This document shows, in pieces, positions 42,353 through 59,042 of a DNA stretch of 64,000 bases. Source of the DNA: Blastocatellia bacterium (GTDB lineage: Bacteria > Acidobacteriota > Blastocatellia > UBA7656); contig CAVXWP010000008.1 in NCBI GenBank assembly GCA_963765495.1, forward strand, positions 224,001-288,000, written 5' to 3'. How positions within the stretch are numbered: position 1 is the stretch's first letter; the number at the start of each line of letters is the position of its first letter. Made by a program: the position numbers and the translations under genes. The notes below the pieces were generated by a model. The model was not told the DNA's origin. It made no database searches and saw nothing but the letters and a program-made list of their open reading frames with translations.

Positions 42353-43483
42353 TCAGACAGTGCGAGCAATGCCTTCTCTTACCCGGTTCGATCTTTCAAT
42401 CGCCTTCTCTGCGGAGTGTTGATTCTCTTTCGCCCTTATGATCGGCAGAATCTCTTTTCCAAAAAACTCCATCTCTTCCAGTTTTGGCCAGCCCGAGAAG
42501 ATGAATTGTGTAATACCTATGTGCCCATAATTGAGTATCGCGTCGGCAACCTCTTTGGCCGACCCCACAAGCGCGATTGCGGGAGCGCCATGCGAGCGAA
42601 CCGCGCCTGTCCAGAGCGTGCGGTTCAACCACTCGGTATTTGCAAGCTCGTGAGTTCTGGCGAATCCTACAGAGTCACTGTTGCTAATGAAACTCCTCTC
42701 CATATCTTTTTCCCTGAGCTTCGCGTCAAGACGCTCGACAAGCTGGGTTGCCGCCCGTATCGCCTCTCGTCGAGTAGGTCTGGAAATGATCGAGCATCGA
42801 AGCCCCACCTCTTTTCCGCTCGCAAGTATAGGCTGAATGTCGGGGAGCAATCTTTCGGGAGTGTCGGCGAGCCGCATCCAGCAGGTACCCTGATGGATTG
42901 CCAGGTGTTGGGCGGGCCGGGAATTTCCCGCGATATACAATTCGGGGAATGACCTGTCATTCGAGATGAAGGGGGTATTCAGCCTGCCGTTCTCTATCTG
43001 ATAATACTTGCCGTCAAAATTGACCGGGCCGTAATTCTTCCAGAAGCCGTGACAGACGGCCAGAAACTCTTCGGTTCGCTCGTACCTCTCGTCGTGAGAG
43101 AGAAAATCGCCATAGTAGCGTTGCTCTTCCGGTGAGTGGCCGGCCACGATGTTTAGCGAGAATCGCCCGTTTATCAGCGCCGATAGCGTGTTCAATTGCT
43201 GGACGAATGTTGTAGGAGAGAGCAAACCCGAGCGATAGGCGATGATAAATTTGACCTTTTCGGTTGCAAGCCCGAGTGCGGTGGCAAGCAGAATGGGGTC
43301 AGGCTTTGAGTACCCGAAATCTGTCAGCAGCGAATCTATGCCACTGCTTTCGGCGACCCGGCAGAAATGGGTCTGGGTCTCAAGGTCGGGAAGCGATGTG
43401 TCAATTTTTGTGGCTGCCAGAGCCCTGGTCTTGCCTGACCCTTCGCCTCTTTGTAACAGCCTCCAATGAAATCTCAATGCCAT
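42353..43483 (-). CDS. LLM-class flavin-dependent monooxygenase (SsuD-like), paralog 2
   Basis: GRFSLNIVAG, ERYERTEEFL and ALVGS motifs. Confidence 0.9.
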   Translation of the reverse strand: MALRFHWRLLQRGEGSGKTRALAATKIDTSLPDLETQTHFCRVAESSGIDSLLTDFGYSKPDPILLATALGLATEKVKFIIAYRSGLLSPTTFVQQLNTLSALINGRFSLNIVAGHSPEEQRYYGDFLSHDERYERTEEFLAVCHGFWKNYGPVNFDGKYYQIENGRLNTPFISNDRSFPELYIAGNSRPAQHLAIHQGTCWMRLADTPERLLPDIQPILASGKEVGLRCSIISRPTRREAIRAATQLVERLDAKLREKDMERSFISNSDSVGFARTHELANTEWLNRTLWTGAVRSHGAPAIALVGSAKEVADAILNYGHIGITQFIFSGWPKLEEMEFFGKEILPIIRAKENQHSAEKAIERSNRVREGIARTV

Positions 43484-43523
43484 CCGGCTTCTCTCCCTTC
43501 TATTATTTGCCCGGCCCGGTATC

Positions 43524-43558
43524 CAAATCTCAAATCTCAAATCTCAAATCTCAAATCT
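43524..43558. repeat. (CAAATCT)5 heptamer tandem repeat
   Basis: Read directly in the gap between the two LLM genes. Confidence 0.85.
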
Positions 43559-43568
43559 CAAATTCATT

Positions 43569-44687
43569 TCAGCCTGTCAGACCCAAAATAATCTTGCGCT
43601 GTCTTTCGATCTCTCTATTCTTCTCGGCTTCCTGCTCTTTTGCCCTGATCAGGGGTAGTATCGCCTGACTGAAGAACTTCATCTCTTCAATATCGGGCCA
43701 CCCCATGAATAGAAATTGACTGACACCTGCTTCCTTATACTCCATAATCGCCGTAGCTATGTCTTCGGGCGAACCCACAAGGGCGATCGCTACGGCTCCA
43801 AGGTAGGGAACCGCGCCCGTCCAGAGATACTGACTCAGCCAGTCGGATTCGTTTTTTTCGGCCAGCGCGAATGTTGAGCGGAAAGCAACAGAATCAGATT
43901 TCTTCTCGAATTCCTTATGAGTCTTCTTCGGTTGTGTGCCGAGCTTGCGAATCATCGAGTTAGCATCATCTATCGCCTGCTTGCGGGTGGGTCTTGCAAG
44001 AATCGAAACAAGCAGCCCGACTTCTTTTCCCTGTGGTCGGAAAAGCTGAGTTCGAGACCTGATCTTTTCCGGCGTGTCAGGCAACCGCCAAAGGCAGTCG
44101 GCGTGCTTTAATGCCAGCGCTTCGGCAAGCGGCGAATTGCCGCCAAGAAAAATTTCGGGGCGCGGTCTTTCATCAGAAACGAAAGGCGTATTTAATTTGC
44201 CGTTCTCTATTCGATAATGCTTGCCCTCAAAGTTTACTTCACCGCTCTGTTCCCAGAATGCGCGACAGACGGTCAGGAACTCATCGGCCCGCTCATACCT
44301 TTCATCGTGGGTGAGAAAGTCGCCATATGCGCGTTGCTCGCCGGGCGTATGGCCTGCGACTACATTGAGGCAAATTCGCCCGTTTGTCAGTGCAGAGACG
44401 GTATTGACCTGTTGCACGAATACGGTTGGAGAGAAGATGCCTGACCGGACCGCTACCATAAACTTTATGCGCTCGGTCATCATTCCAAGCCCGCTTGCAA
44501 GTGCTATGGGGTCTGGACGGTGAAAGCCAAAGGCTGTCAGCAGGGAATCCATCTCGCAGGCTTCGGCTGTGCGGCAAAATCGCAGATGAGCCTCAAGGTC
44601 GGGGATACCCGACTGTTCGGCTCTTGCCTTTGCGCCCTTCAATCTCTCTCCGGCCGCCGACATGCTCCAATGAAATCTCAGGCCCAT
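43569..44687 (-). CDS. LLM-class flavin-dependent monooxygenase (SsuD-like), paralog 1
   Basis: GRICLNVVAG, ERYERADEFL and ALVGSPE motifs; colinear with paralog 2. Confidence 0.9.
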   Translation of the reverse strand: MGLRFHWSMSAAGERLKGAKARAEQSGIPDLEAHLRFCRTAEACEMDSLLTAFGFHRPDPIALASGLGMMTERIKFMVAVRSGIFSPTVFVQQVNTVSALTNGRICLNVVAGHTPGEQRAYGDFLTHDERYERADEFLTVCRAFWEQSGEVNFEGKHYRIENGKLNTPFVSDERPRPEIFLGGNSPLAEALALKHADCLWRLPDTPEKIRSRTQLFRPQGKEVGLLVSILARPTRKQAIDDANSMIRKLGTQPKKTHKEFEKKSDSVAFRSTFALAEKNESDWLSQYLWTGAVPYLGAVAIALVGSPEDIATAIMEYKEAGVSQFLFMGWPDIEEMKFFSQAILPLIRAKEQEAEKNREIERQRKIILGLTG

Positions 44688-44761
44688 TTCTTTATTCTCC
44701 TCTTGAGTGCGCAAGTCGAAGACCCTCTACGGTCTCCGGGCCCTCAAATCGAGGTGATGAC

Positions 44762-45955
44762 CTAAGGCTTGTAAAAGGACGGGTCAAATGTCTCTCCGAG
44801 CAGAGACTTGCCGATTGTCGCCAGTATATGATCGTCATTATCGTGGCGAACATAAAAGGAGAGGTCCCTGTAAATGCGTTCAATCGGGCTTGGGCGATTC
44901 AACGATCTGGCTCCGCACGCCTTTATAGAGTGCCTCACGGTCTCTTCCGCAAGATGTTCGATCACATAGCGAGCGCGGCTTCCGGCGAGCTTTGCCTCTT
45001 CATACTTACCCGTTTCCCAGAGTCCGGCCACGTGCAGAAGCCATAGATGCGCCGTCTCGATGTTGATAGACATACGGGCTATGTGTTGCTGCACGTAAGG
45101 GTCGCCTCCCTTTTTCTGGTTCTTCAGATAGGTCATCGCATAGTCGTGTGCAGCTTCGGCCGCGCCCAGAAAGCTTGCCGCGTAATGCGGGATGAAACAG
45201 GTTTGCCACCCATCGGTGATGTATTGCCCGGGGCGTCCGATCATATTTTCGTCGGGGATAAATGTTTGCTCGAACCGGGCCATGTAGCTGACTGTCCCCC
45301 TCATTCCAATCGGGTCCCACCACGAAGGATCGTAGGAGACGCTTTTATCCGAGAGATCGCAGGCCAGCATCAACAGCCCTTCGGTCGAGCCGCTTGAGTG
45401 GCGTGCTCCGCCCGGACCGGCCGTGTTTACGAGCAGAATCGCCCAGTTTGCCGCCCCCGCGCTTGTTGAAAAGACTTTTGTTCCGTCTACGATATAGCCG
45501 CCGCTTGTTTTTTCAACATAGGTTCCGAATCTAATCTTCTCTCCGGGGGCCTGCGCCTGTGGCTCGCCGCTCCACGCTACCCATTTTTCCCCGCGCTCGA
45601 CAACGCCTTCAAACCACCTGGATTTTTGCGATTCGGTTGCGAGCCCGGTAAGAAGTACGAGCGAATTCGCGTGGCCTTCCCAGCATCTGGCAAGCGAAAG
45701 GTCGGCCCTGGCCATCTCTTTTGTCATCATCCAGAGTGTAAAGACATCGCCGAGGTATGGGCCGAGGCCAAGCCCGCCGTATTCTTTCGGGGCTGCTGCG
45801 GCAAGCAATCCTTCACGAAAAAGGTCTTCGAAATCTTCGGTCGGGAACTCCGCCGCCCGGTCATAGTGGGAGGCGCGAGGCGCGAATTTTTCCTGAGCGA
45901 GCGCCGCTACGCGACCGAGCAAATCCTTCTTCTCCTGTGAGAGGGCAAATTCCAT
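44762..45955 (-). CDS. Acyl-CoA dehydrogenase-like flavoprotein
   Basis: PKEYGGLG, GTKVFST, GMRGT and IERIYRD motifs. Confidence 0.9.
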   Translation of the reverse strand: MEFALSQEKKDLLGRVAALAQEKFAPRASHYDRAAEFPTEDFEDLFREGLLAAAAPKEYGGLGLGPYLGDVFTLWMMTKEMARADLSLARCWEGHANSLVLLTGLATESQKSRWFEGVVERGEKWVAWSGEPQAQAPGEKIRFGTYVEKTSGGYIVDGTKVFSTSAGAANWAILLVNTAGPGGARHSSGSTEGLLMLACDLSDKSVSYDPSWWDPIGMRGTVSYMARFEQTFIPDENMIGRPGQYITDGWQTCFIPHYAASFLGAAEAAHDYAMTYLKNQKKGGDPYVQQHIARMSINIETAHLWLLHVAGLWETGKYEEAKLAGSRARYVIEHLAEETVRHSIKACGARSLNRPSPIERIYRDLSFYVRHDNDDHILATIGKSLLGETFDPSFYKP

Positions 45956-50112: not shown

Positions 50113-50156
50113 AAAATCTGAGACGCGAAAAATCTGAGACGCGAAAAATCTGAGAC
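50113..50156. repeat. 16-bp tandem repeat (AAAATCTGAGACGCGA), about 2.7 copies
   Basis: Read directly. Confidence 0.8.
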
Positions 50157-50202: not shown

Positions 50203-50217
50203 GAGTGATAAATAAAG

Positions 50218-50307
50218 CGGAGAAGGAGGGATTCGAACCCTCGATAGGCCTTTACAGCCTATAGCGGTTTAGCAAACCGCCGCCCTCAGCCACTAGGCGA
50301 CTTCTCC
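50218..50307 (-). tRNA. tRNA-Ser(GCT), CCA not encoded
   Basis: GGAGAAG acceptor stem; GCGGT-TTGCTAA-ACCGC anticodon arm; long variable arm; GGTTCGAATCC T-loop. Confidence 0.96.
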
Positions 50308-50382: not shown

Positions 50383-52833
50383 TCATTCATATCTGAGCGC
50401 AACCATCGGGTCTACCTTTGTCGCCCGTCGCGCAGGGACGTAACAGGCCAGAAAAGCAACAAAAGCCAGCAAAACAGGTATCGAAATAAAGATCATCAGA
50501 TCTCTTGCGCTCACCCCAAAGAGGAGACTCTCCATAAGCCGGGTCAATACGACCGCCGCCCCAACCCCCAAGCCGAGGCCAATCAGGGCCAGTATCATCC
50601 CCTGACCTACGATGAGTTTTAAGATATTCCCCCGCGTAGCGCCTAGCGCCATCCTGATTCCTATTTCGTGCTTTCGCTGATTGACCGAATAACTCATGAC
50701 TCCGTAAATCCCAATGGCCGCAAGCAGCAGCGCGACGGCGGAAAATGTCCCTAGCAATACGGTGTAGAGTCGGGGCTGGGAGATTGAATCCGACACCATC
50801 TCTTGCATGGTCTTTATCTCGTAGACCGGCTGGTTGCTGTCTACGGCATATACCTGATCACGCACGCTGCGGGCGAGGCTCGTGGGGGGAGACGATGTCC
50901 GAACTACAAGAGACATAAACGGCCATGGTGTTTGCAGATAAGGCACGTACATTTCGGTCCCGGATTCCGTATCAAGCCCGGAATGTTTGACATCGCCTAC
51001 GATGCCGACAATCTCGCGGGAGTTATTGCCGCTTGATGGAATGGTCAGGTGTTTTCCCAGGGCATCCCCTTCGGGCCAGTAGGTTTTGGCCATAGTCTCG
51101 TTTAATATCACCACGCCCGGCGATCGTTCGTTGTCCTGATCGGTAAAGACCCTGCCGCTCTTGAGGGAGATGCCGATTGCCCGGAAATAATCCGGGCTGA
51201 TGCTGCGATAATTTGCCAGCAGTCTTTCATTGGGCGTAGCGGGCGGACGCCCATCAATGGTAAATCGGAGTGTGGCTTTGTCTTCGCTGAGTGGAAGCAT
51301 TATTGCCGCTCCGGCAGATTGAACACCGGGCAAAGCCTTTACCCGGTCGAGCACCTGCCCAAAGAAATCTCTGACCTGCTGGTCTTCCGAGTACTTGGAT
51401 TGCGGCAAGGTGATGCGCATTGTCAGCACGTCGTTTGGATTGAATCCGGGGTCTACATTCTGAAGCGATAAAAAGCTCTTTATCATAAGGCCTGCGCCGA
51501 TCAGAAGTACGGTTGCAAGCGAGACTTCGATTATGACAAAGATGCTCCGCAATCTGTTGCGACGAATGCCCCCGGTCGAACCCCGAGCCCCTTCTTTCAA
51601 TGTTTCATTCAAGTCGGGGCTGGATGCCTGGATTGCCGGGATGAGGCCAAAGATAATTCCGGTCAAAATCGAGATCAGGATTGTAAATCCGAGCACTTTT
51701 ATATCAATGCCGATCTCATCGAGACGGGGAATGTTGGCGGGGTTTATGGCCTTTAACAATCTGATGCCTGAGAATGCGATCAGCAATCCGAGTATGCCGC
51801 CGATGAGGCCGAGAATCAGGCTTTCGGTCATCAACTGTCTTATGAGTCGGAATCTCGTTGCGCCAAGCGCAGTTCGAATCGAAAACTCTTTTTGTCGGGC
51901 AGTGGCGCGGGCCAGCAGCAGGTTGGCTACATTTGCGCAGGCGATTAGAAGAACAAAGCCTACCGCAGCGAGCAGGATCAGCAGGGCGGGTCTTATATCG
52001 CCGATCAGGTGCTGCTCAATGGGTACGACCTGAAGGCTCACGCTTGTGTTCGTATCCTTGTACTGTTCCTCAAGACGACCTGCGATGGTCTCCATCTCTT
52101 TTTGCGCCTGCTCGCGACTGAACCCCGGTTTGAGCCGACCGATGCCGAGAAGGAATCGCGATGATCGTTTATTAATCGTATCCGGGGCCACCACAGACGG
52201 CACACGGATGGCGTCGCCTCCATCCATGGAGAGTGGAACCCATATCTCATCCTTTTTTTCGGGGGCTCGAAAATTTGCGGGAGTGATGCCTACGATGACG
52301 AAGGGCGCATCATTAAGAAGAATAGACTTGCCGACAATATCGGGGTCGGAAGCAAACCGGCGCTGCCATAAACCGTGGCTGAGGATTACTACTCGATTTG
52401 CTCCCGGCTGGTCTTCCTCCGGCAGGAATACGCGGCCATGGATGGGTGTCACTCCTAGTGTCGAGAAGAAATTGGCCGTAACGATTGACCCTGTCAGATG
52501 TTCCGGCTCTCCTTCTCCGATCAGGTTGAAATCCTGGTATGAAAAAGCGGCCAGTTGATCGAAAGCCTGGCTTTGCTTGCGATAATCCTCAAAATCAGGG
52601 ACCGAAATCGGCTGTTGATTCTTGCCGGTCTTGAGATTGTTAACCCAGACCATCATCACTTTGTCCGGCTCACCGTAAGGTAGAGGGTGGAGCAGGACCC
52701 CGTTCACTATGGAGAAGATAGCTGTATTTGCCCCGGTTCCCAATGCTAGCGCAAGCACTGCCACTATAGTAAACCCTATATTTTTGGCCAGCATTCGAAA
52801 TGAATACTTAATGTCTTGCAGTATGGTCTCCAT
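50383..52833 (-). CDS. ABC transporter permease, duplicated MacB/FtsX (ADOP-type)
   Basis: LALGTGANTAIFS, LLIACANVANLLLAR and EIGIRMALGA...VDPMVALRYE motifs. Confidence 0.93.
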   Translation of the reverse strand: METILQDIKYSFRMLAKNIGFTIVAVLALALGTGANTAIFSIVNGVLLHPLPYGEPDKVMMVWVNNLKTGKNQQPISVPDFEDYRKQSQAFDQLAAFSYQDFNLIGEGEPEHLTGSIVTANFFSTLGVTPIHGRVFLPEEDQPGANRVVILSHGLWQRRFASDPDIVGKSILLNDAPFVIVGITPANFRAPEKKDEIWVPLSMDGGDAIRVPSVVAPDTINKRSSRFLLGIGRLKPGFSREQAQKEMETIAGRLEEQYKDTNTSVSLQVVPIEQHLIGDIRPALLILLAAVGFVLLIACANVANLLLARATARQKEFSIRTALGATRFRLIRQLMTESLILGLIGGILGLLIAFSGIRLLKAINPANIPRLDEIGIDIKVLGFTILISILTGIIFGLIPAIQASSPDLNETLKEGARGSTGGIRRNRLRSIFVIIEVSLATVLLIGAGLMIKSFLSLQNVDPGFNPNDVLTMRITLPQSKYSEDQQVRDFFGQVLDRVKALPGVQSAGAAIMLPLSEDKATLRFTIDGRPPATPNERLLANYRSISPDYFRAIGISLKSGRVFTDQDNERSPGVVILNETMAKTYWPEGDALGKHLTIPSSGNNSREIVGIVGDVKHSGLDTESGTEMYVPYLQTPWPFMSLVVRTSSPPTSLARSVRDQVYAVDSNQPVYEIKTMQEMVSDSISQPRLYTVLLGTFSAVALLLAAIGIYGVMSYSVNQRKHEIGIRMALGATRGNILKLIVGQGMILALIGLGLGVGAAVVLTRLMESLLFGVSARDLMIFISIPVLLAFVAFLACYVPARRATKVDPMVALRYE

Positions 52834-53048
52834 TCAGCCTCCAATCAGGACATTGAAAAGGGTTCATTCGGGGGAATTCTATATCTAAATTTCATCCGAC
52901 AGTCAATGTAATCAGTTTGACCGTAGGAAAGCAAACCTGGGAAAGGACGGACATTTTAGAAAACCGAAGGCCCCGGGGAGGGGGCGCTGATCTGTCTCTT
53001 TTCTACGCTACAAGACTAAGAGGGACACGTGGATTCAAACCCTATTTG

Positions 53049-54410
53049 TCAATCAGTAGCCCACATAAGCTGGCTCATTACGGATACGGCGGTCACAATC
53101 AGAATAATTATGCCTCCGGCAACAAACATAGCTGTAATATTTAGGTCAACCATGACGCCAGCCAGTGCCAGAGACGCCGGTTCGAGCAACGAGACGGCAA
53201 ACATCATTACACCGACTACTCTGCCAAGCATTCCCGATTTCGATCTGGTTTGGAGCCACGCCATAATATTGACATTCGCAAGGCCGGACCCGATGCCCAT
53301 CGCAGCCATCACAAAGACAGCTACTAAAACATTCGAGGCAAATCCCATTGCGATCATGCCAATCGAGAAGAGAATGCCGAGTCCTATCAACAATCTTCCC
53401 CGGCGACGCGGCTCTTTCATCGTTCCTGCGAGGAAGGTCCCAATTATCGTACCTCCGCCAAGGGCGGAAAATATCGTCCCGAGCGCCATTGCTCCACCCT
53501 TGTATCGCTGGTCAGATAGTGCGGTTATGCCTACCGATAGCGGGCCTGTGAATGAGAATTCCATCACAGCAATGAAAAACATTAGGGCGCGAAGCACAGG
53601 GTCTTTCCAGGCATAGCGCGCCCCTTCAATTACGGAGGACATCAATTCCCTGAATGGATTCCGATTCTGTATTACGGGCTCTTCTTCAAAAGGAGGAGCA
53701 TCATTTTCGGGCGGAGCCACGGTATTGGGAATCCCTCTCATCATCCAGAGGCAAAGGGCTGAAATGATAAATGTAAGGGCGTCGGTCGCGAATGCTACAC
53801 CGTTATTTGTGGCTTCGATCACGAACCCGGCAAGCGCCGGTCCAACAAAACTCATGATTCGTCTTGACCCCTGGAGGAGGGAGTTGGCAGGGGTTAACCG
53901 CTCTCTTGGAATCAGCAGGGGTACGGCCGCCATGTAGGCGGGGAAGAAGAACGCGTCTACGCAACCAAACACGATGGCGAGGAGATATAGATGCCAGAGC
54001 TTGAGGCTTTCCATCAGAATTAAGACCATTACTGCTGCCATAAGTAAGGCGCGGACCACATCAGAGACCAGCATTAGCGTTCTTGGTGAGACCCGATCGC
54101 TAATAGCTCCAGCCAGAAGCTGGAAAACCGCCCGTGTGATCCCGGTTGCCATAAGCACTGTGCCCACCGCAATCCCGGACCCGGTCAATTGCAGTGTCAG
54201 CCATGGCAATGCGATAAGATAAAACTTGTCGCCAAAGACCGAAATAACCTGCCCGACCCACAGCAAACGAAAATTCGGAATTGTGAGCGGCTGCCAAAGC
54301 GGCAAACCTCGCAATCGTCCGATGTATGAACTCCTGGGCGGCGGTTCATCTTCACCTGAGTACCTTTGGGAACCCGTCATGGATTTGGGGCAACTCCTGT
54401 TGGCAGTCAA
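53049..54410 (-). CDS. MFS transporter (DHA3/macrolide-efflux-like)
   Basis: NFRLLWVGQVISVFGD; about 12 TM segments; MLGRV. Confidence 0.9.
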   Translation of the reverse strand: MTANRSCPKSMTGSQRYSGEDEPPPRSSYIGRLRGLPLWQPLTIPNFRLLWVGQVISVFGDKFYLIALPWLTLQLTGSGIAVGTVLMATGITRAVFQLLAGAISDRVSPRTLMLVSDVVRALLMAAVMVLILMESLKLWHLYLLAIVFGCVDAFFFPAYMAAVPLLIPRERLTPANSLLQGSRRIMSFVGPALAGFVIEATNNGVAFATDALTFIISALCLWMMRGIPNTVAPPENDAPPFEEEPVIQNRNPFRELMSSVIEGARYAWKDPVLRALMFFIAVMEFSFTGPLSVGITALSDQRYKGGAMALGTIFSALGGGTIIGTFLAGTMKEPRRRGRLLIGLGILFSIGMIAMGFASNVLVAVFVMAAMGIGSGLANVNIMAWLQTRSKSGMLGRVVGVMMFAVSLLEPASLALAGVMVDLNITAMFVAGGIIILIVTAVSVMSQLMWATD

Positions 54411-54499
54411 AAGATAAGCCTCCTCCCGAGGCTCTCCCTAAGCGGGAAGGGTCACTAGAAATCTTTGAAACAACGAATTAAATTAGTATCGTCTTGCTA

Positions 54500-57046
54500 C
54501 TAGAACAACCACAATTCGGGCCTTAGCGCCTGCCATACCTTGTTGGCCAGAATCAACCCTATTGATTTTCGGCCAAAGCTGATGCGAGCATAGCCGGTCA
54601 TCCCCGGGCGGAGGATCCCTTCAGAATTATCAACAACCACTTCGACGGGATAGAAGTTTTGCCCCAACTGGTTTGGAGCGGGTTCAGCATTTATTTTTGA
54701 GACGCGCCCTGTAAATGTGCGTCCCGGGACAGTCTTCAGCTTGAATCGAACCGGGGAGTCCATCCGCACATCTGCGATCTCGCGCTCGCTCACTTCTATT
54801 CTGAGCAGGAAGTCCGCAAGTTCGCCTATGCGGCAAACCTCTTCGCCCCGGCTGTAGTGCTTTCCAACCTGGCGTCGCAAATCATCGCCAAGGACTACGC
54901 CTGCGCGCTCGGCGACAAGGTTCATCCCCTGATACTGCCGGTCAAGCAGATCGCGTCGCTGCTTGAGCGATTCGAGCTCTCCGCGATTGGCGTGGAGATC
55001 GGCTATGAGCGCCTCAAAGCTTGACTGCGCCGCCCGCGCTTCGGTTTCAGCGACAAGCGAGGTCGTTTCGGCACCGCTCGCCTGGCGGCGATGCTCGACT
55101 AAAGCGGCCTCAAGCCGGGCGCGTGCTGCCTGTTCTTCTTTTTCAGAAATCTTCATTGCCGCGACCGCTCTATCTAGTTGTTGCTCGCCCACAAGTCCCT
55201 CGGAGAGCAGTCTCTTGTATCGCTCAACCTCTCGCCTGTTGAATTCCATTTCGGTCTGTTTCAACTCGATCTCAGACTGCATGACTTTTAGCGAGGCGGG
55301 AAGGGAAGATGCCCGACGGGTTTGCCATTCATTGATCTGGCTTGTCTCTTCTTTCAACTCCCCGGCCATTCGCTTTCGCTCAACCTCTTTGAAATTGGCC
55401 GAAAGCATCAGCTCGCTGCGCACTCTCAACTCGTCTTCGAGCCGGGTTGCATTTGTGCTCAGTCTTTCGATTTCCGCATTGAGTTGCGTGAGGCGATCCT
55501 CGATTTCAGGATTTGAAAGATGGGCTAATTTTGTTCCGATCGCGATTATGTCCCCTGGCGCAACGAAGACCTCGGAAAGCACGCCGTCGGTGTTGGCACG
55601 GGCAACTTCTTCGCGTCCCGGCGGTAATAGCAAGGCGCAATCACTTCCCGTAGACGCTTCCCACGGCGCAATAAGGGCCGTTATTATCAGCAGCGCGGCG
55701 AAAATCTTGATTGCCTGTCGGCGGGTAGGAAACCGACTCTTCCCGTCCCCTTCGGTTTTGTCCTTCGTCTCCTGATCTCCTCTCTCTCTCTCCGTTTGAG
55801 CAGACATCTTTGATTCTCCTTCCTGCCGACCTTGCCCTAGCGTCCTGAAGGCTGCCTTCGCTGCGGGCTTCCACCATTTTTCTGTAAGCAAAATAGCAAG
55901 AATCACGGTAAAGAGCACGCCGATCGGCCCCAGACCGCTCATCAATTTCTCTCCGGCCCAGCGTAAAATAAACCATATTAAAATTATTGAGTAGAGGATT
56001 GAGCAAACCCAATAAATCGAATAAAGAAGGGGTCGGTCGGGCTCTATCCTCTGCGCCGGTCGCTGGCCTGCGATCCGTCCGTAAAGCGATTTCATATATT
56101 CGGAGGATCGGGTCTGAAGGTTTTGCACGCCCAGGGCTTGTGAGAGCGCATAGTATCCGTCAAGTTTGATGAGCGGGTTGCAGTTTATAATGATGTTAAA
56201 AGTCCCGCCTAAAAATACTAAAAAGCAAAAATCCGCAAGAAGCGAATAGGGCGTTGCCACAAGCCAGATCAAGGCGCCCAGGGCGCTGATCGAGAGTTGC
56301 CAGTAGATGCCCGCAAATATTACCCACAACCTCTCGGTTCTTCTGCCGAAGCGATAAATATCGGTTACATTGCAATAGAAGGCAGGCAGCACATAGTAAA
56401 TCATCAGGACTCCGACTTCGCGGACGTCTCCCCCGAAGTGTTTGCAGGCGAGCCCGTGCGCAAGTTCATGGAGCGCAGTGATGGTCAGCGTGATCGCGAG
56501 TATCGTCGCCAGACCATATTCGGAATAGGTATAGGATGTATATGAAGAGACTTCACCCGAATTGCTCAACATCAGGAAGGTCGCAAGTATCATCAAAACA
56601 AATGAGGCTGTTATAAAGGGCCTAGTCATTGCCCATCCCAACCTTTTATCCATCCATCCAAGTAATCGGTCAGGGTTGAAGAGGTGGAATTTTATGTATA
56701 ACCCTCGCCCCTGTTTGCCGGAGGAATCGGGCTGTAAGTCGCCGCCTCGTTCAAGCAGTCCAAGGTCATCGAGTTTTGTGAGGAATTTTGAAAGCGCGAT
56801 TGAGGATACGCGTGGGCCGGTTCCTGTTCGTCCTCCGCGAGCGACCTCGGATGGCGTCTGTGTGCCGTCGAACTGGCAGAATACTCTGTACTCAGGAGTC
56901 TTGAGGAGGAAGTAACGAGAAGTGACTGAATTCCTGATTACATAGCGGATCATACCCTCTTCCACCTGTTCGGTAACGTCTACCGAATCCGACACACGCG
57001 GGGGGAAACAGCAGTAGAGTCCAGTTTTTTCATCGGGTCCATGCAT
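54500..57046 (-). CDS. PqqD/RRE-like plus M50-type zinc peptidase plus HlyD membrane-fusion protein
   Basis: N-terminal YVIRN...YFLL...FDG...L...GLL winged-helix-like region; HELAH and NPLIKLDGYY; coiled coil; C-terminal LRPGMTG. Confidence 0.85.
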   Translation of the reverse strand: MHGPDEKTGLYCCFPPRVSDSVDVTEQVEEGMIRYVIRNSVTSRYFLLKTPEYRVFCQFDGTQTPSEVARGGRTGTGPRVSSIALSKFLTKLDDLGLLERGGDLQPDSSGKQGRGLYIKFHLFNPDRLLGWMDKRLGWAMTRPFITASFVLMILATFLMLSNSGEVSSYTSYTYSEYGLATILAITLTITALHELAHGLACKHFGGDVREVGVLMIYYVLPAFYCNVTDIYRFGRRTERLWVIFAGIYWQLSISALGALIWLVATPYSLLADFCFLVFLGGTFNIIINCNPLIKLDGYYALSQALGVQNLQTRSSEYMKSLYGRIAGQRPAQRIEPDRPLLYSIYWVCSILYSIILIWFILRWAGEKLMSGLGPIGVLFTVILAILLTEKWWKPAAKAAFRTLGQGRQEGESKMSAQTERERGDQETKDKTEGDGKSRFPTRRQAIKIFAALLIITALIAPWEASTGSDCALLLPPGREEVARANTDGVLSEVFVAPGDIIAIGTKLAHLSNPEIEDRLTQLNAEIERLSTNATRLEDELRVRSELMLSANFKEVERKRMAGELKEETSQINEWQTRRASSLPASLKVMQSEIELKQTEMEFNRREVERYKRLLSEGLVGEQQLDRAVAAMKISEKEEQAARARLEAALVEHRRQASGAETTSLVAETEARAAQSSFEALIADLHANRGELESLKQRRDLLDRQYQGMNLVAERAGVVLGDDLRRQVGKHYSRGEEVCRIGELADFLLRIEVSEREIADVRMDSPVRFKLKTVPGRTFTGRVSKINAEPAPNQLGQNFYPVEVVVDNSEGILRPGMTGYARISFGRKSIGLILANKVWQALRPELWLF

Positions 57047-57213
57047 GTACAGGCAGCCTTATAACACAAAGTAAAAGAGCGCGGAAGCCGGGGATTTCAA
57101 ATTGGTTTCTGTCAGAATTTCTTTGCGCCTGACGAAACCAAATCCAATCCTCGTTCCGCGCCCCTCGCCAGTACCGATCAATCAGTAAAGGCTTGCTTTG
57201 ATCGAGAACTTGA

Positions 57214-57306
57214 TTAATCGCTGAGCAGAAAACCCGGCGCCACAACCTGTTCCATCTCTTCGATTTCCATCTCATCAATAATCAATTCGTTTCTTTCGTC
57301 GGTCAT
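57214..57306 (-). CDS. Precursor peptide 3: MTDERNELIIDEMEIEEMEQVVAPGFLLSD
   Basis: AAGGAG RBS, ATG...TAA; paralog of peptides 1 and 2. Confidence 0.9.
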   Translation of the reverse strand: MTDERNELIIDEMEIEEMEQVVAPGFLLSD

Positions 57307-57349
57307 GATCTTCTCCTTTTGATTTAAGCAGTCTATGTATTGATAATTG

Positions 57350-57378
57350 CTGCGCGTCGGTGTCGCGATGACGCGCAG
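57350..57378. repeat. Conserved intergenic hairpin after peptide 2
   Basis: CTGCGCGTC-ggtgtcgcgat-GACGCGCAG; near copy at 57521-57547. Confidence 0.7.
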
Positions 57379-57389
57379 GTATAAGCGAA

Positions 57390-57482
57390 TCAGTTGCTGA
57401 TCAACATACCCGGAGCTTCGATCTGCTCCATCTCTTCGATTACCATCTCTTCAAGGATCACTTCGTTTCTTTCGTCAGTCAT
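57390..57482 (-). CDS. Precursor peptide 2: MTDERNEVILEEMVIEEMEQIEAPGMLISN
   Basis: AAGGAGG RBS, ATG...TGA. Confidence 0.9.
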   Translation of the reverse strand: MTDERNEVILEEMVIEEMEQIEAPGMLISN

Positions 57483-57520
57483 GGCGTCCTCCTTTTTAAT
57501 GTTTTCGGTCGGGAAAAGTG

Positions 57521-57547
57521 CTGCGCGCCAGTGTCGCGATGACGCGC
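57521..57547. repeat. Conserved intergenic hairpin after peptide 1
   Basis: CTGCGCGCCAGTGTCGCGATGACGCGC. Confidence 0.65.
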
Positions 57548-57558
57548 TATAAAATAAA

Positions 57559-57657
57559 CTAGTCGCTGATCAACATGCCCGGAGCTTCGATCTGCTCCAT
57601 CTCTTCTATGTTAAGCTCGGTTACGAGTACGGCTTCGTTGTTTCTTTCGTCAGTCAT
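57559..57657 (-). CDS. Precursor peptide 1: MTDERNNEAVLVTELNIEEMEQIEAPGMLISD
   Basis: AAGGAG RBS, ATG...TAG. Confidence 0.9.
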   Translation of the reverse strand: MTDERNNEAVLVTELNIEEMEQIEAPGMLISD

Positions 57658-57716
57658 GATGTTCTCCTTCTGAATTTTAGGTTTTTCTTATTACTGCGTG
57701 TTACATCCTGTTGTAG

Positions 57717-57732
57717 TGCAACAGTCGTGCCA
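57717..57732 (-). promoter_or_regulatory. Sigma-54 -24/-12 promoter
   Basis: TGGCACGACTGTTGCA matches the consensus TGGCACG-N4-TTGCW exactly, 60 bp upstream of peptide 1. Confidence 0.85.
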
Positions 57733-57819
57733 CTCTTTTACATCTTCGAACTCTGATGTCTTTCTATGCAGTTTCAATGACTTAGCCCGATTGGCGAGAA
57801 CTACCTGATTTCACTCGGA

Positions 57820-57925
57820 GTGTGAACCAGATACACACATTAGAAGCGCATTCCCGTATTTGTTGCAAATAAAAGGTGATAGTGGCAGTGTGTAGCAGCT
57901 ACACACCTGTGAATCTGCTACACAT
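57820..57925. promoter_or_regulatory. Three 19-bp palindromic upstream activator-like sites
   Basis: GTGTGAACCAGATACACAC (57820), GTGTGTAGCAGCTACACAC (57888, perfect inverted repeat) and CTGTGAATCTGCTACACAT (57907). Confidence 0.75.
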
Positions 57926-58094
57926 TACCGAAGCCCCCGAAATTGATGTGATTTGAATGGCCAAACGGGTGACCAGGGGAGAAGAACTTAGAGCAGGTAA
58001 GAGCACATCACAGAGAAAATCCTTTGCCAGTCCCGTCGATCTTATATAGAATCAGATCAACCCCCTCAAAGTTTAGCCCCTTCGGAGATAGACT

Positions 58095-58400
58095 ATGAGC
58101 GTTTTGCCGTATAGGGATGGTCTGTTTGAAAGTTTTGAAAAGCTCGTCGAGATAAAGATTTGTAGTATGCCTGCCAGCGTTCCAGAAAATAATAAGCTGC
58201 TTCGCTGCTTTCAATATATAAAGATGGACACGGTTTCGCTTGGCGACTATTGCTGGAATGGCGACTGTACAAACTGCCAGATATGGTACAGGGCTGAGAA
58301 TGGCGAAGTTAAGTCTGCACTTGCCTGCAAAATGTATGTGCGGCCCGGGCTCGATATAACAGCCGTAAGCGCAAATTTGAGATTTGATTTGACTGAGTGA
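58095..58400 (+). CDS. Small 2Fe-2S ferredoxin-like protein
   Basis: YCWNGDCTNC...LAC cysteine pattern. Confidence 0.75.
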   Translation: MSVLPYRDGLFESFEKLVEIKICSMPASVPENNKLLRCFQYIKMDTVSLGDYCWNGDCTNCQIWYRAENGEVKSALACKMYVRPGLDITAVSANLRFDLTE

Positions 58401-58403
58401 TCT

Positions 58404-59042
58404 CTATTGTGCGGGTTTGAACAGGAAACGGTGAATCATGTCACTAAGAGCGTTTATAGCGCTTTCCTTGTCAAATTCTCCGATCCCCGTCACATAATAC
58501 TGGGAGAGATCAAAGACCGCGCGTTGTACGACAAAGGCTGCGGCATCGACATCGATCTGCTGTGTAAGACCGGCTTTTTGAGCCAGAGAAATCAACTCTC
58601 TGAGTCTGGAAATGGACCTCCCCATAATGGCTCTCTGTCTTTCGGCAAACTCCGCATCCTTCAGGACGAGTTCACAGATTACCCGATGAAGACCGGCATT
58701 CTTTTGTTTGTCCTCGATTGCGTGAAGGACAGCCTGTCTTATGCGCGGCCTCAGTTCGGGGTCAAAAAGGTCTTCGGGTCTCAGGGTGGCAAAGGTATTC
58801 TTAAACAACTCGTCGGCAAGCCGATCAAAGATGGTCAGAAGCAACTGCCGTTTGTCATTAAAGTAGACATAAAAGGAACCGACGCTTACCCCTGCTTCGG
58901 CTGCAATATCATTCGATGTGGTCTTTTCAAATCCGCGTTCCTCGAATAGTTCCGTAGCTGCAAGGATGATCTTTTCCTTTGTCTGTTTGCTCCTGGCCTG
59001 CTTTGGATCACTCGGAATGCTTACTATAATTGCCTCACCCAT
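58404..59042 (-). CDS. TetR/AcrR family regulator
   Basis: IILAATELFEERGFEKTTSNDIAAEAGVSVGSFYVYF. Confidence 0.93.
   Translation of the reverse strand: MGEAIIVSIPSDPKQARSKQTKEKIILAATELFEERGFEKTTSNDIAAEAGVSVGSFYVYFNDKRQLLLTIFDRLADELFKNTFATLRPEDLFDPELRPRIRQAVLHAIEDKQKNAGLHRVICELVLKDAEFAERQRAIMGRSISRLRELISLAQKAGLTQQIDVDAAAFVVQRAVFDLSQYYVTGIGEFDKESAINALSDMIHRFLFKPAQ

Follow-up and report, generated by a model that had tools for sequence, protein, structure and literature searches.

A daptide-related system of putative hexapeptide precursors and a leader-recognition, protease, and adaptor fusion protein in a Blastocatellia genome

The 64,000-nucleotide stretch of a Blastocatellia bacterium genome analyzed in this study (hereafter the window; contig CAVXWP010000008.1 of assembly GCA_963765495.1) carries three tandem genes for peptides of 30-32 residues, followed on the same strand by a gene for an 848-residue fusion protein. 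This protein joins an RRE (the recognition element for leaders of RiPPs, peptides that are made by the ribosome and modified after translation) to an M50/site-2 intramembrane metalloprotease and a HlyD-type periplasmic adaptor. We describe these genes as a daptide-related precursor system that is free of tailoring enzymes and combines RiPP-style leader, RRE, and protease logic with a minimal, hypervariable core. The small open reading frames (ORFs) very probably encode translated precursors that are recognized and cut by the fusion protein, judging by sequence comparison with related loci. Our overall reading, held with moderate confidence, is that leader-guided cleavage after Ala-Pro is followed by export of unmodified hexapeptides, which are possibly signals. 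Peptide signaling is textbook knowledge for the Firmicutes and, to our knowledge, almost unknown in diderm bacteria; the Acidobacteriota, to which this genome belongs, are a dominant and poorly understood soil phylum.

Precursor genes and the fusion protein

The three precursor genes lie on the minus strand, at 57559-57657 (32 residues, with the leader MTDERNNEAVLVTELNIEEMEQIEAP and the core GMLISD), 57390-57482 (30 residues, core GMLISN), and 57214-57306 (30 residues, core GFLLSD). Each was delineated as an ORF with a ribosome binding site (RBS) and by alignment, the first with 29 relatives, and the ATG starts lie 6-8 nt 3' of an AAGGAG-type RBS (GAAGGAGAA, AAAGGAGGA, or AAAGGAGAA). All three peptides share the N-terminus MTDERN and the segment IEEMEQ(I/V)(E/V)AP, which is followed by a hydrophobic six-residue tail; two of the leaders end in EMEQIEAP and one in EMEQVVAP, and all are acidic, with a net charge of -7 to -8. 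A first-pass annotation of the window, made from the sequence alone, had described these ORFs, their RBS, the acidic leaders, and the six-residue tails, and inspection of the ORFs and sequences agrees with it. Its remark that the ORF track had missed them needs one correction: public gene callers do call them, always unnamed or as "hypothetical protein." In the 7.30-Mb, 17-contig, 97.9%-complete genome, tblastn matches of the window precursors are confined to their own locus. None of the three matches an NCBIfam family at E ≤ 0.1, ten precursors from relatives gave just four chance-level matches at E ≤ 1, far under cut-off, and a Pfam scan of one window precursor returned no match. A test for the double-glycine motif found no GG at the ends of the window leaders.

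The fusion gene (54500-57046, minus strand) is single-copy in the window genome. It encodes, in order, the RRE or leader-recognition domain (residues ~17-100; 56747-56998, minus strand; assigned from AlphaFold2, Foldseek, and the daptide_HExxH alignment), the M50/site-2 protease (residues ~120-403; 55838-56689, minus strand; assigned from motifs, model, and NCBIfam), one transmembrane helix, and the HlyD/membrane-fusion periplasmic adaptor (residues ~442-848; 54503-55723, minus strand; assigned from Pfam and Foldseek). The full-length AlphaFold2 model (mean predicted local distance difference test, pLDDT, 76.7) has the same layout: a small domain with three strands and three helices spans residues 22-94, and a membrane domain built of helices spans residues 125-403. 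These are followed by a disordered linker, the transmembrane helix, and the adaptor (442-847), which forms a long hairpin with its helices (513-707) flanked by beta domains.

When the N-terminal 120 residues are modeled alone with AlphaFold2, the pLDDT is 78.5 overall and 83-93 in the core. Foldseek matches of this model in the PDB are led, at ranks 1-6, by the leader-bound RREs of lasso peptide B1 proteins, including TbiB1 (5v1u, 5v1v, 6jx3), with a probability of 1.00, a target-normalized TM-score of 0.64-0.71, and E-values of 2e-3 to 2e-2; later matches are unrelated and weak. As modeled, the N-terminal domain has the RRE fold (a winged helix of three strands and then three helices), in line with the RRE-like N-terminus of the first-pass annotation. 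For residues 1-400 of the fusion protein together with a precursor, complex prediction gave weak support, with a score of 0.55 against 0.00 for the best of three controls; the runs share at least 84% of their contacts, and the pLDDT of the partner is at least 56. The mark used for this score is reached by 58 of 80 solved complexes and 2 of 110 mismatched pairs (counts that apply here approximately, own alignments having been used), and seven of those 80 solved complexes as well as both of the passing mismatched pairs reach it at a score of 0.60 or less.

The protease domain has the motifs HExxH (residues 193-197; 56456-56470, minus strand) and NPLIKLDG (residues 290-297), both of which sit in helices of the predicted model. 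Across 31 close and 31 distant homologs (the latter at 24-36% identity), H193, E194, H197, N288/N290, P291, D296, and G297 vary little or not at all, and the protease therefore looks active from its sequence. The daptide_HExxH profile (NF041824) matches with 199.2 bits in the protein scan and 202.4 bits in the genome scan (equivalog cut-off 300; E 1e-58), and its positions 1-366/367 of 379 align to residues 16-389; in sequence, this half is a clear homolog of the daptide peptidase. The match to the YydH/LiaK family is weaker (58 bits versus a cut-off of 225). In the adaptor, the Pfam families HlyD_D23 (PF16576; 51.4 bits, cut-off 30) and HlyD_3 (PF13437; 48.2 bits, cut-off 22.2) match above cut-off, and the Foldseek matches include EmrA (4tko, E 1.6e-19), MacA (3fpp, E 1.1e-16), and adaptor chains of EmrAB-TolC and MacAB-TolC. 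Pfam and NCBIfam domain scans of the fusion protein and its neighbors detected no C39 domain and no ATP-binding cassette (ABC) ATPase domain.

Daptide gene clusters were discovered through an RRE fused N-terminally to an intramembrane site-2 protease, and the daptide report describes a leader motif, ELExMEAP, numbered so that it ends at P(-1), in which both RRE binding and RRE-dependent processing require L(-7) and M(-4) (10.1101/2023.03.08.531785). Both the leader end and the RRE-fused protease had been mentioned in the first-pass annotation, and both are present in that report. The window system resembles it in three respects: homology of the protease runs from end to end and takes in the N-terminal RRE; the leader residues E(-8), M(-7), E(-6), Q(-5), I/V(-4), E/V(-3), A(-2), and P(-1) fit the motif as described position by position, the common form being E-hydrophobic-E/D-x-hydrophobic-E-A-P with a cut, predicted for the window, after Pro(-1); and several precursor genes lie directly upstream of the protease gene, as they do in the daptide clusters described. 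It differs in other respects. The core has six residues instead of the ~20 or more aliphatic residues given for daptides, the protease is fused to a HlyD-type adaptor, and the host is a diderm acidobacterium, whereas the models described in the daptide report are from Actinomycetota and Bacillota. The same report presents the enzyme MpaC as strictly selective for Thr, the C-terminal Thr becoming the amine terminus (10.1101/2023.03.08.531785). The three window peptides terminate in D, N, and D, none in Thr, as had been noted at first pass along with the lack of tailoring enzymes nearby.

A search of the whole genome for daptide enzymes gave no match to daptide_RRE/DapB (NF041823), a weaker negative since this profile also matched none of 14 control genomes, and none to daptide_DH/DapC (NF041822). 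The DapD aminotransferase profile (NF041821) has four generic matches of at most 206 bits versus a cut-off of 450, as it does in all 14 control genomes. No DapB, DapC, or DapD occurs in the window; the DapM methyltransferase was not searched for. Pfam and NCBIfam scans of the window likewise found no tailoring enzyme within ~10 kb on either side of the module. With its short core, lack of Thr, unmatched DapB and DapC, and sub-cut-off protease, the window system is outside the daptide class.

Recurrence of the module and divergence of the core

A scan of one genome per prokaryotic species yielded 18 fusion loci, 17 of them at 58-66% identity to the window protein and mostly labeled Blastocatellia, and one at 36%. 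Fifteen of the 18 have a usable upstream flank, and each of these has one or two small ORFs directly upstream of the fusion gene (18 ORFs in total). GGAG occurs within 20 nt before the start of all 21 precursor ORFs, that is, these 18 and the three in the window. A metagenome scan added 80 loci, and the loci were tiered by identity to the window fusion protein. A relaxed leader motif on the same strand, at most 2.5 kb upstream of the fusion gene, was counted in 28 of 29 tier-1 loci (55-68% identity) with at least 300 nt of flank, in 10 of 13 tier-2 loci (34-37%; flanks are shorter than 1 kb in the three loci without it), and in 35 of 49 tier-3 loci (25-29%). A search for the leader motif near fusion homologs had been proposed at first pass, and these counts are its outcome. 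All six frames of the remaining 778 kb contain 17 matches, and the association of the leader motif with the fusion far exceeds chance. One tier-1-like homolog (L038:2907-4127, 55% identity) matches residues 1-405 only, i.e., the RRE and protease without the adaptor. In the 2.9 kb upstream of it, leader-type ORFs are absent, and the homolog may represent a split or truncated form.

Alignment of the 30 distinct tier-1 peptides shows no variation at E(-8), E(-6), A(-2), or P(-1) (30/30) and almost always aliphatic residues at positions -10, -7, -4, and -3, with Glu at -3 in two peptides. The core is exactly six residues long in 25 of the 30. Its first position is usually small. Hydrophobic residues predominate at positions 2-4 and small or polar ones at position 5, where aliphatic residues also occur in some peptides, and the residue at position 6 tends to be G, D, A, N, T, or E; a C-terminal Thr occurs in two of the 30. 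Examples of cores from relatives include AVVVTA, GIILAG, and SVIILG.

We compared divergence across the module in 11 tier-1 loci that share the same leader type (55 pairs, mean identities). The fusion protein has a mean identity of 0.80, the leader 0.91 in amino acids and 0.87 in nucleotides, and the flanking non-coding DNA (60 nt per side) 0.74-0.75 in nucleotides. The core, in contrast, has 0.29 in amino acids and 0.49 in nucleotides, and hypervariability is restricted to its six codons. Because the core outpaces the neighboring non-coding DNA and yet keeps its residue pattern, diversifying selection appears to act on a functional product. The same combination is a strong argument that the small ORFs encode more than attenuator peptides, and the sequence comparison supports their behaving as real precursor genes. 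Six codons that outpace non-coding DNA make a clear case from nature of a minimal peptide under diversifying selection.

Beyond these close relatives, the cargo takes other forms. Tier-2 precursors are multi-core repeats with two or three ...EE(L/M/I)E(E/D)(V/T)IAP units, each preceding a conserved segment such as KLATNHNETLVND (L018:826-1086; L088:142-432; L035:419-634; L031:2224-2409); in one example, three ...EELEEVIAP units are each followed by x-L-A-x-NHNET-x-V-x-D. All 13 tier-2 loci encode a TPR_10/TPR_12 protein (~290 residues) between the precursor and the fusion. In tier 3 (L041-L098), the fusion is preceded by one to five ORFs that carry an ...(I/V)EELEERIAP leader and then 25-75 residues among which Gly, Asn, Pro, and Ser abound, often in repeats (examples at L062:21-173, L043:636-1968, L087:4401-4613, and L090:1594-1896). 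Their low-complexity cores include GYEGQPGNQG repeats, NNPPLNNTNNPGNEG, HATQAT repeats, and SHKSH repeats. The neighbors of tier-3 modules include a 325-residue soluble protein of unknown function (10 loci), a metallo-beta-lactamase-fold protein (six), a 2-oxoglutarate-Fe(II) oxygenase (four), and a TolC-family outer-membrane protein (four). One tier-3 peptide cluster has a member labeled Actinomycetota.

Because the E-hydrophobic-E-x-x-x-A-P leader is found with fusions that share only 25-37% identity, leader and protease evidently move as a pair; across this deep divergence the leader end and the fusion appear, from their sequences, to stay paired, whereas the cargo becomes entirely different. 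In this much larger family, in which protease and adaptor are fused, the daptide leader/peptidase pair is only one branch. Searched with the N-terminal 400 residues of the fusion, 10,545 representative clusters match at E ≤ 1e-3 and 532 at E ≤ 1e-30, and most of the best 150 representatives are 680-870 residues long, corresponding to fused forms. Named members are annotated as "putative peptide zinc metalloprotease protein," "efflux RND transporter periplasmic adaptor subunit," or as multidrug efflux pump/AcrA-type proteins. Within a sample of the phylum, matches at E ≤ 1e-25 occur in 52 of 401 genomes (including the window genome and G024, flagged as unpublished). Close matches are limited to the family of the window genome, with none in 27 genomes of another family of the same class. 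A literature search with leader motifs and architecture terms, judged in part by titles and abstracts, found no description of an RRE-protease-HlyD fusion family, the supplements of the daptide papers lying outside its scope.

Two variants of this family were also observed. The homologs P0133, P0137, P0145, and P0159 (1037-1076 residues) have an extra N-terminal portion of ~215 residues before the RRE-protease part. In L048, L055, L067, L072, L075, and L076, no leader-type ORF lies within 2.5 kb and a cold-shock-protein gene is directly upstream, usually following a queuosine-synthesis (QueA-like) gene; this sub-branch may serve another substrate, or its precursor may be encoded elsewhere.

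Proposed mechanism and competing explanations

In the mechanism that we propose, the RRE would bind the leader at its hydrophobic positions -7 and -4, by homology with MpaA/MpaP, and the protease would cut after Pro(-1) to give GMLISD, GMLISN, and GFLLSD (~634-650 Da), again by homology; the cut is predicted after Pro because the window leader fits the daptide motif position by position. The architecture of the fusion protein suggests that cleavage would occur at the inner membrane, and that the peptide would exit through the channel of the fused adaptor and a TolC-type outer-membrane protein, driven by an inner-membrane pump, for which the adjacent major facilitator superfamily (MFS) transporter is the candidate in this genome. 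It is rather likely that the product is released and exported as a free peptide of about six residues. Because the core codons diverge faster than neighboring non-coding DNA, the hexapeptide would be the selected product, and evolution and context suggest that outside the cell it would most likely act as an unmodified, strain-specific signal; a role in intercellular signaling as such is put forward tentatively.

Several known systems share parts of this scheme. The short hydrophobic peptides (SHPs) of streptococci and the sex pheromones of enterococci, both Firmicutes, are hydrophobic peptides of 7-8 residues that are cut by the M50 protease Eep, exported, and used as strain-specific signals. 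Eep-processed precursors have basic or signal-peptide-like N-termini, and the peptides enter the cell through Opp before they meet their receptors, RRNPP/TPR proteins of the cytoplasm. The window system is like these pheromones in its proposed mode of working, and the cores of relatives named above are similar in composition; it differs in that homology extends only to the M50 fold and that the window leader is acidic and putatively RRE-bound. In double-glycine-leader peptidase-ABC exporters with HlyD partners (colicin V-type), leader removal is coupled to export via the adaptor and TolC. The logic is alike, whereas the window system has no C39 peptidase, ABC ATPase, or GG motif. With EmrA (EmrAB-TolC) and MacA (MacAB-TolC), the C-terminal half of the fusion shares the adaptor fold; unlike them, it is fused to a protease rather than paired with a conserved pump gene.

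Among systems with intramembrane proteases, the EpeX/YydF epipeptide is a small ribosomal peptide processed by the M50 protease EpeP/YydH, which is described as thought to cleave and export it, so that protease-centered export has a precedent as a hypothesis (PMC10885120). The pairing of an intramembrane M50 protease with a small ribosomal peptide is the same as in that description, and the window differs in its RRE and adaptor fusion and in having no radical-SAM epimerase (the adjacent radical-SAM gene is mqnE). The pearlin M50 enzymes TglG/TmoG are reported in the same source to release very small products from scaffold peptides (PMC10885120), and a membrane M50 enzyme with a very small C-terminal product of a longer peptide is common to both systems. 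As described there, pearlin products are single amino acids that depend on tRNA-dependent ligases and are heavily modified, whereas the window tail is genome-encoded and no such enzymes were found. TmcP of the TMcins, from Gram-positive bacteria, is an S2P-clan DUF3267 (PF11667) protease that removes a RiPP leader at the membrane (PMC13712780, mBio 2026). It is likewise a site-2-clan intramembrane protease for a RiPP leader and differs, as far as its description goes, in belonging to another family, in having neither RRE nor adaptor, and in acting on a transmembrane-helix substrate.

The signaling role draws on the genomic context in relatives. A homolog of an HD-GYP/GAF/GGDEF protein (825-850 residues, with a multi-pass membrane N-terminus followed by the HD-GYP, GAF, and GGDEF domains) stands beside the module, in three different arrangements, in 19 of the 22 tier-1 loci whose upstream flank is 990 nt or longer: 15 are close orthologs directly upstream on the same strand, two lie downstream on the opposite strand (47% identity), and two, also on the opposite strand, have only 34-36% identity. 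This linkage survives rearrangement, which suggests a functional tie to cyclic di-GMP (c-di-GMP) signaling, although the genomes are related and each encodes several paralogs of the HD-GYP family. The first-pass annotation considered unmodified pheromones more likely than an antibiotic; hypervariable cores and the frequent linkage of relatives to this c-di-GMP protein may favor signaling, but the window genome lacks that linkage. In relatives, the next gene outward often encodes a TPR-containing sigma-54 activator or an OmpR-type TPR regulator; the best regulator homologs of the window genome are far from the module. Prompted by the sigma-54 activators that adjoin some relatives, a scan for sigma-54 promoters upstream of the precursors found no convincing -24/-12 element in the window or in 20 loci, the best match having 7 of 11 consensus positions at one locus only; sigma-70 and terminator scans around the window precursors remained at shuffle level. 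We considered the HD-GYP protein as a co-diversifying receptor: its membrane domain is more variable than the HD-GYP domain (0.66 versus 0.95), which is compatible with such a role, but this is common in sensors and does not discriminate between readings. The joint reading, in which diffusible, unmodified pherotype signals are sensed by the adjacent HD-GYP/GAF/GGDEF protein in most relatives and the fusion with its leader defines a widespread, hitherto unrecognized, leader-dependent route of peptide export in diderm bacteria, seems doubtful as a whole. Our search of the literature on Blastocatellia peptide quorum sensing found no relevant paper for the Acidobacteriota.

A number of observations weigh against cleavage and export of unmodified hexapeptide signals. 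Fourteen of the 49 distant fusion loci have no leader motif within 2.5 kb. The Foldseek E-values of the RRE exceed 1e-3, the complex score of 0.55 was graded as weak support and the model may remember solved RRE-leader complexes, the Pfam Peptidase_M50 match (PF02163) has 19.3 bits, under its cut-off of 27.2, and the daptide_HExxH match is likewise under its equivalog cut-off. Site-2 proteases usually cut membrane-embedded segments, and the precursor substrate has none. On the export side, the MFS gene adjoins the module in this genome only, and no inner-membrane transporter is conserved beside the module in the loci examined. As for signaling, two of the 19 linked HD-GYP cases are only 34-36% identical, a paralog-level value, and on the opposite strand; all 19 come from related genomes, so that shared descent inflates the count; the window locus itself has no HD-GYP partner, its best homolog (57% identity) being on contig C5; and a locus with several precursor copies fits RiPP or bacteriocin families better than it fits systems with one signal.

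The alternative that fares best is a cryptic RiPP with the same leader, RRE, and protease logic, in which the short core is modified, before or after cleavage, by enzymes encoded elsewhere and the product is a bioactive small molecule; possible chemistries include reactions of the C-terminal Asp/Asn, acylation of the new N-terminal Gly, and epimerization. Multiple precursor copies with varied cores do resemble RiPP libraries, M50 proteases are described as handling small modified products in pearlins and epipeptides (PMC10885120), and the distant modules adjoin candidate tailoring genes, namely those for the oxygenase, the metallo-beta-lactamase-fold protein, and the 325-residue protein counted above (4, 6, and 10 loci). 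The close hexapeptide group, however, has no conserved tailoring candidate, its recurrent neighbors being only signaling proteins and regulators; the window module is flanked by TetR, MqnE, MFS, and ADOP genes in a genome where daptide_RRE and daptide_DH are unmatched, and no core residue is invariant as a fixed modification site. We regard this alternative as unlikely.

Antagonism is a still less probable explanation. The hexapeptides would then be unmodified, narrow-spectrum, bacteriocin-like inhibitors, and core divergence would reflect an arms race, which fits core codons that outpace non-coding DNA as well as pherotype divergence does. The combination of leader, protease, and export adaptor is found in many bacteriocin loci, and the daptide literature describes daptides, the nearest characterized relatives, as membrane-active and hominicin as antimicrobial. 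Against this, the survey of neighbors across the loci revealed no conserved immunity gene beside the module, six unmodified residues are very short for a membrane-active toxin, and the frequent neighbors are signaling and regulatory genes. That the small ORFs and hairpins form a translation-coupled attenuator of the fusion gene with functionless peptides is hardly credible: a hairpin does follow each small ORF, the last one long, conserved, and with a short U run at its end, but amino-acid conservation is seen in the leaders, which share a motif with experimentally characterized daptide leaders, this motif persists down to 25% fusion identity with cores of 6 to ~75 residues or multi-core repeats, the protease has a predicted leader-binding RRE fold, and hypervariability is limited to six codons.

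The preferred reading, leader-guided release of unmodified hexapeptides, makes the locus a concrete and cheap test case, with one protease active site, one RRE-leader pair, and three predicted masses, the calculated [M+H]+ values being 635.307 for GMLISD, 634.323 for GMLISN, and 651.335 for GFLLSD. The leader motif and fusion could also serve as a search handle for genome mining of RiPPs, and a possible use lies in engineering leader-guided peptide secretion in Gram-negative hosts. If the joint reading with the HD-GYP protein is true, a ribosomal peptide signal would be linked directly to c-di-GMP turnover, and the export route would carry cargoes from six-residue signals to multi-core, Gly/Asn/Pro-rich peptides of up to ~75 residues.

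RNA hairpins and neighboring genes

A long, conserved stem-loop (57074-57166, minus strand, ending in CUCUUUU) lies between the last precursor gene and the fusion gene. Its folding energy is -56.1 kcal/mol (z -4.4; 0 of 200 shuffles equally stable), and a stem-loop at the same position in seven other loci tested has z-scores of -1.9 to -6.0. The base of the stem, GGCGCGG/CCGCGCC, persists in 16-17 of the 19 rows that were aligned (one of them a mis-cut 30-nt fragment), and compensatory changes occur in four of nine pairs. A short GC hairpin in the spacer after the first precursor gene (57523-57547, minus strand) recurs with the same sequence in the next spacer (57350-57378); these two have stems of 8-9 pairs and folding energies no better than those of shuffles (z -0.4 and -1.3). 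Rfam has no family at E ≤ 1 over 56800-58500. The long stem-loop is likely an attenuator, a partial terminator, or an mRNA-stabilizing hairpin, and it probably lowers read-through into the enzyme gene and sets a high precursor-to-enzyme ratio. Hairpins that limit read-through into enzyme genes are common in bacteriocin and RiPP operons.

Downstream of the fusion gene are an MFS transporter gene (53049-54410, minus strand; EntS/MFS_3-like by Pfam and NCBIfam, MFS_1 135 bits), with a likelier start at the ATG at 54380, which is preceded by AGGAG, and a gene for an ADOP-type, duplicated MacB-like permease of 816 residues (50383-52833, minus strand; TIGR03434, 1074 bits, above cut-off). Pfam and NCBIfam confirm the co-directional order of fusion, MFS, and ABC permease that was seen at first pass. 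The further claim that the latter two form a dedicated exporter was not sustained, and we rejected them as conserved exporters: they adjoin the module in no other locus examined, including two genomes of the same family; the MFS protein has no match at E ≤ 1e-30 in three fusion-carrying related genomes (G221, G050, and G251); ADOP copies above cut-off number 53 in this genome, with the gene beside the module included; and terminator-like hairpins intervene, at 54416-54434 between fusion and MFS and at 52970-52985 (GC-rich) after MFS. The conserved unit therefore consists of the precursor gene(s), the long hairpin, and the fusion gene. The ADOP protein is probably a neighbor outside the system. 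The MFS protein is possibly an add-on inner-membrane pump in this genome only; by analogy, its EntS-like substrate size class would fit a peptide of ~634 Da, and the EmrA-like adaptor resembles the partner of an MFS pump. Several of the ADOP copies lie in long tandem arrays (e.g., C9 at ~342-387 kb and C7 at ~148-173 kb).

Upstream of the precursors, the genes comprise a Cys-rich 101-residue ORF on the other strand, a TetR regulator, and mqnE. The radical-SAM protein encoded by the last was considered as a RiPP maturase and rejected, as it is the housekeeping aminofutalosine synthase MqnE (496 bits versus a cut-off of 434). The 101-residue ORF (58095-58400, plus strand), between the TetR gene and the precursors, has a CxxxxCxxC cluster and no Pfam or NCBIfam match.

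On the far side of the ADOP gene, ~11 kb from the precursors, two luciferase-like monooxygenase genes and an acyl-CoA-dehydrogenase-like gene lie at 42353-45955 (minus strand), beyond a P460-like gene, a PepSY-like gene, and a tRNA; elsewhere they are non-syntenic with the module, and they were therefore left out of the tailoring candidates. The location of a tRNA-Ser(GCU) gene (50217-50307, minus strand) directly downstream of the ADOP gene had suggested a genomic island, an idea that we rejected since the GC content shows no clear break. Just past this tRNA, at 50118-50155, is a short tandem repeat with the unit GAGACGCGAAAAATCT.

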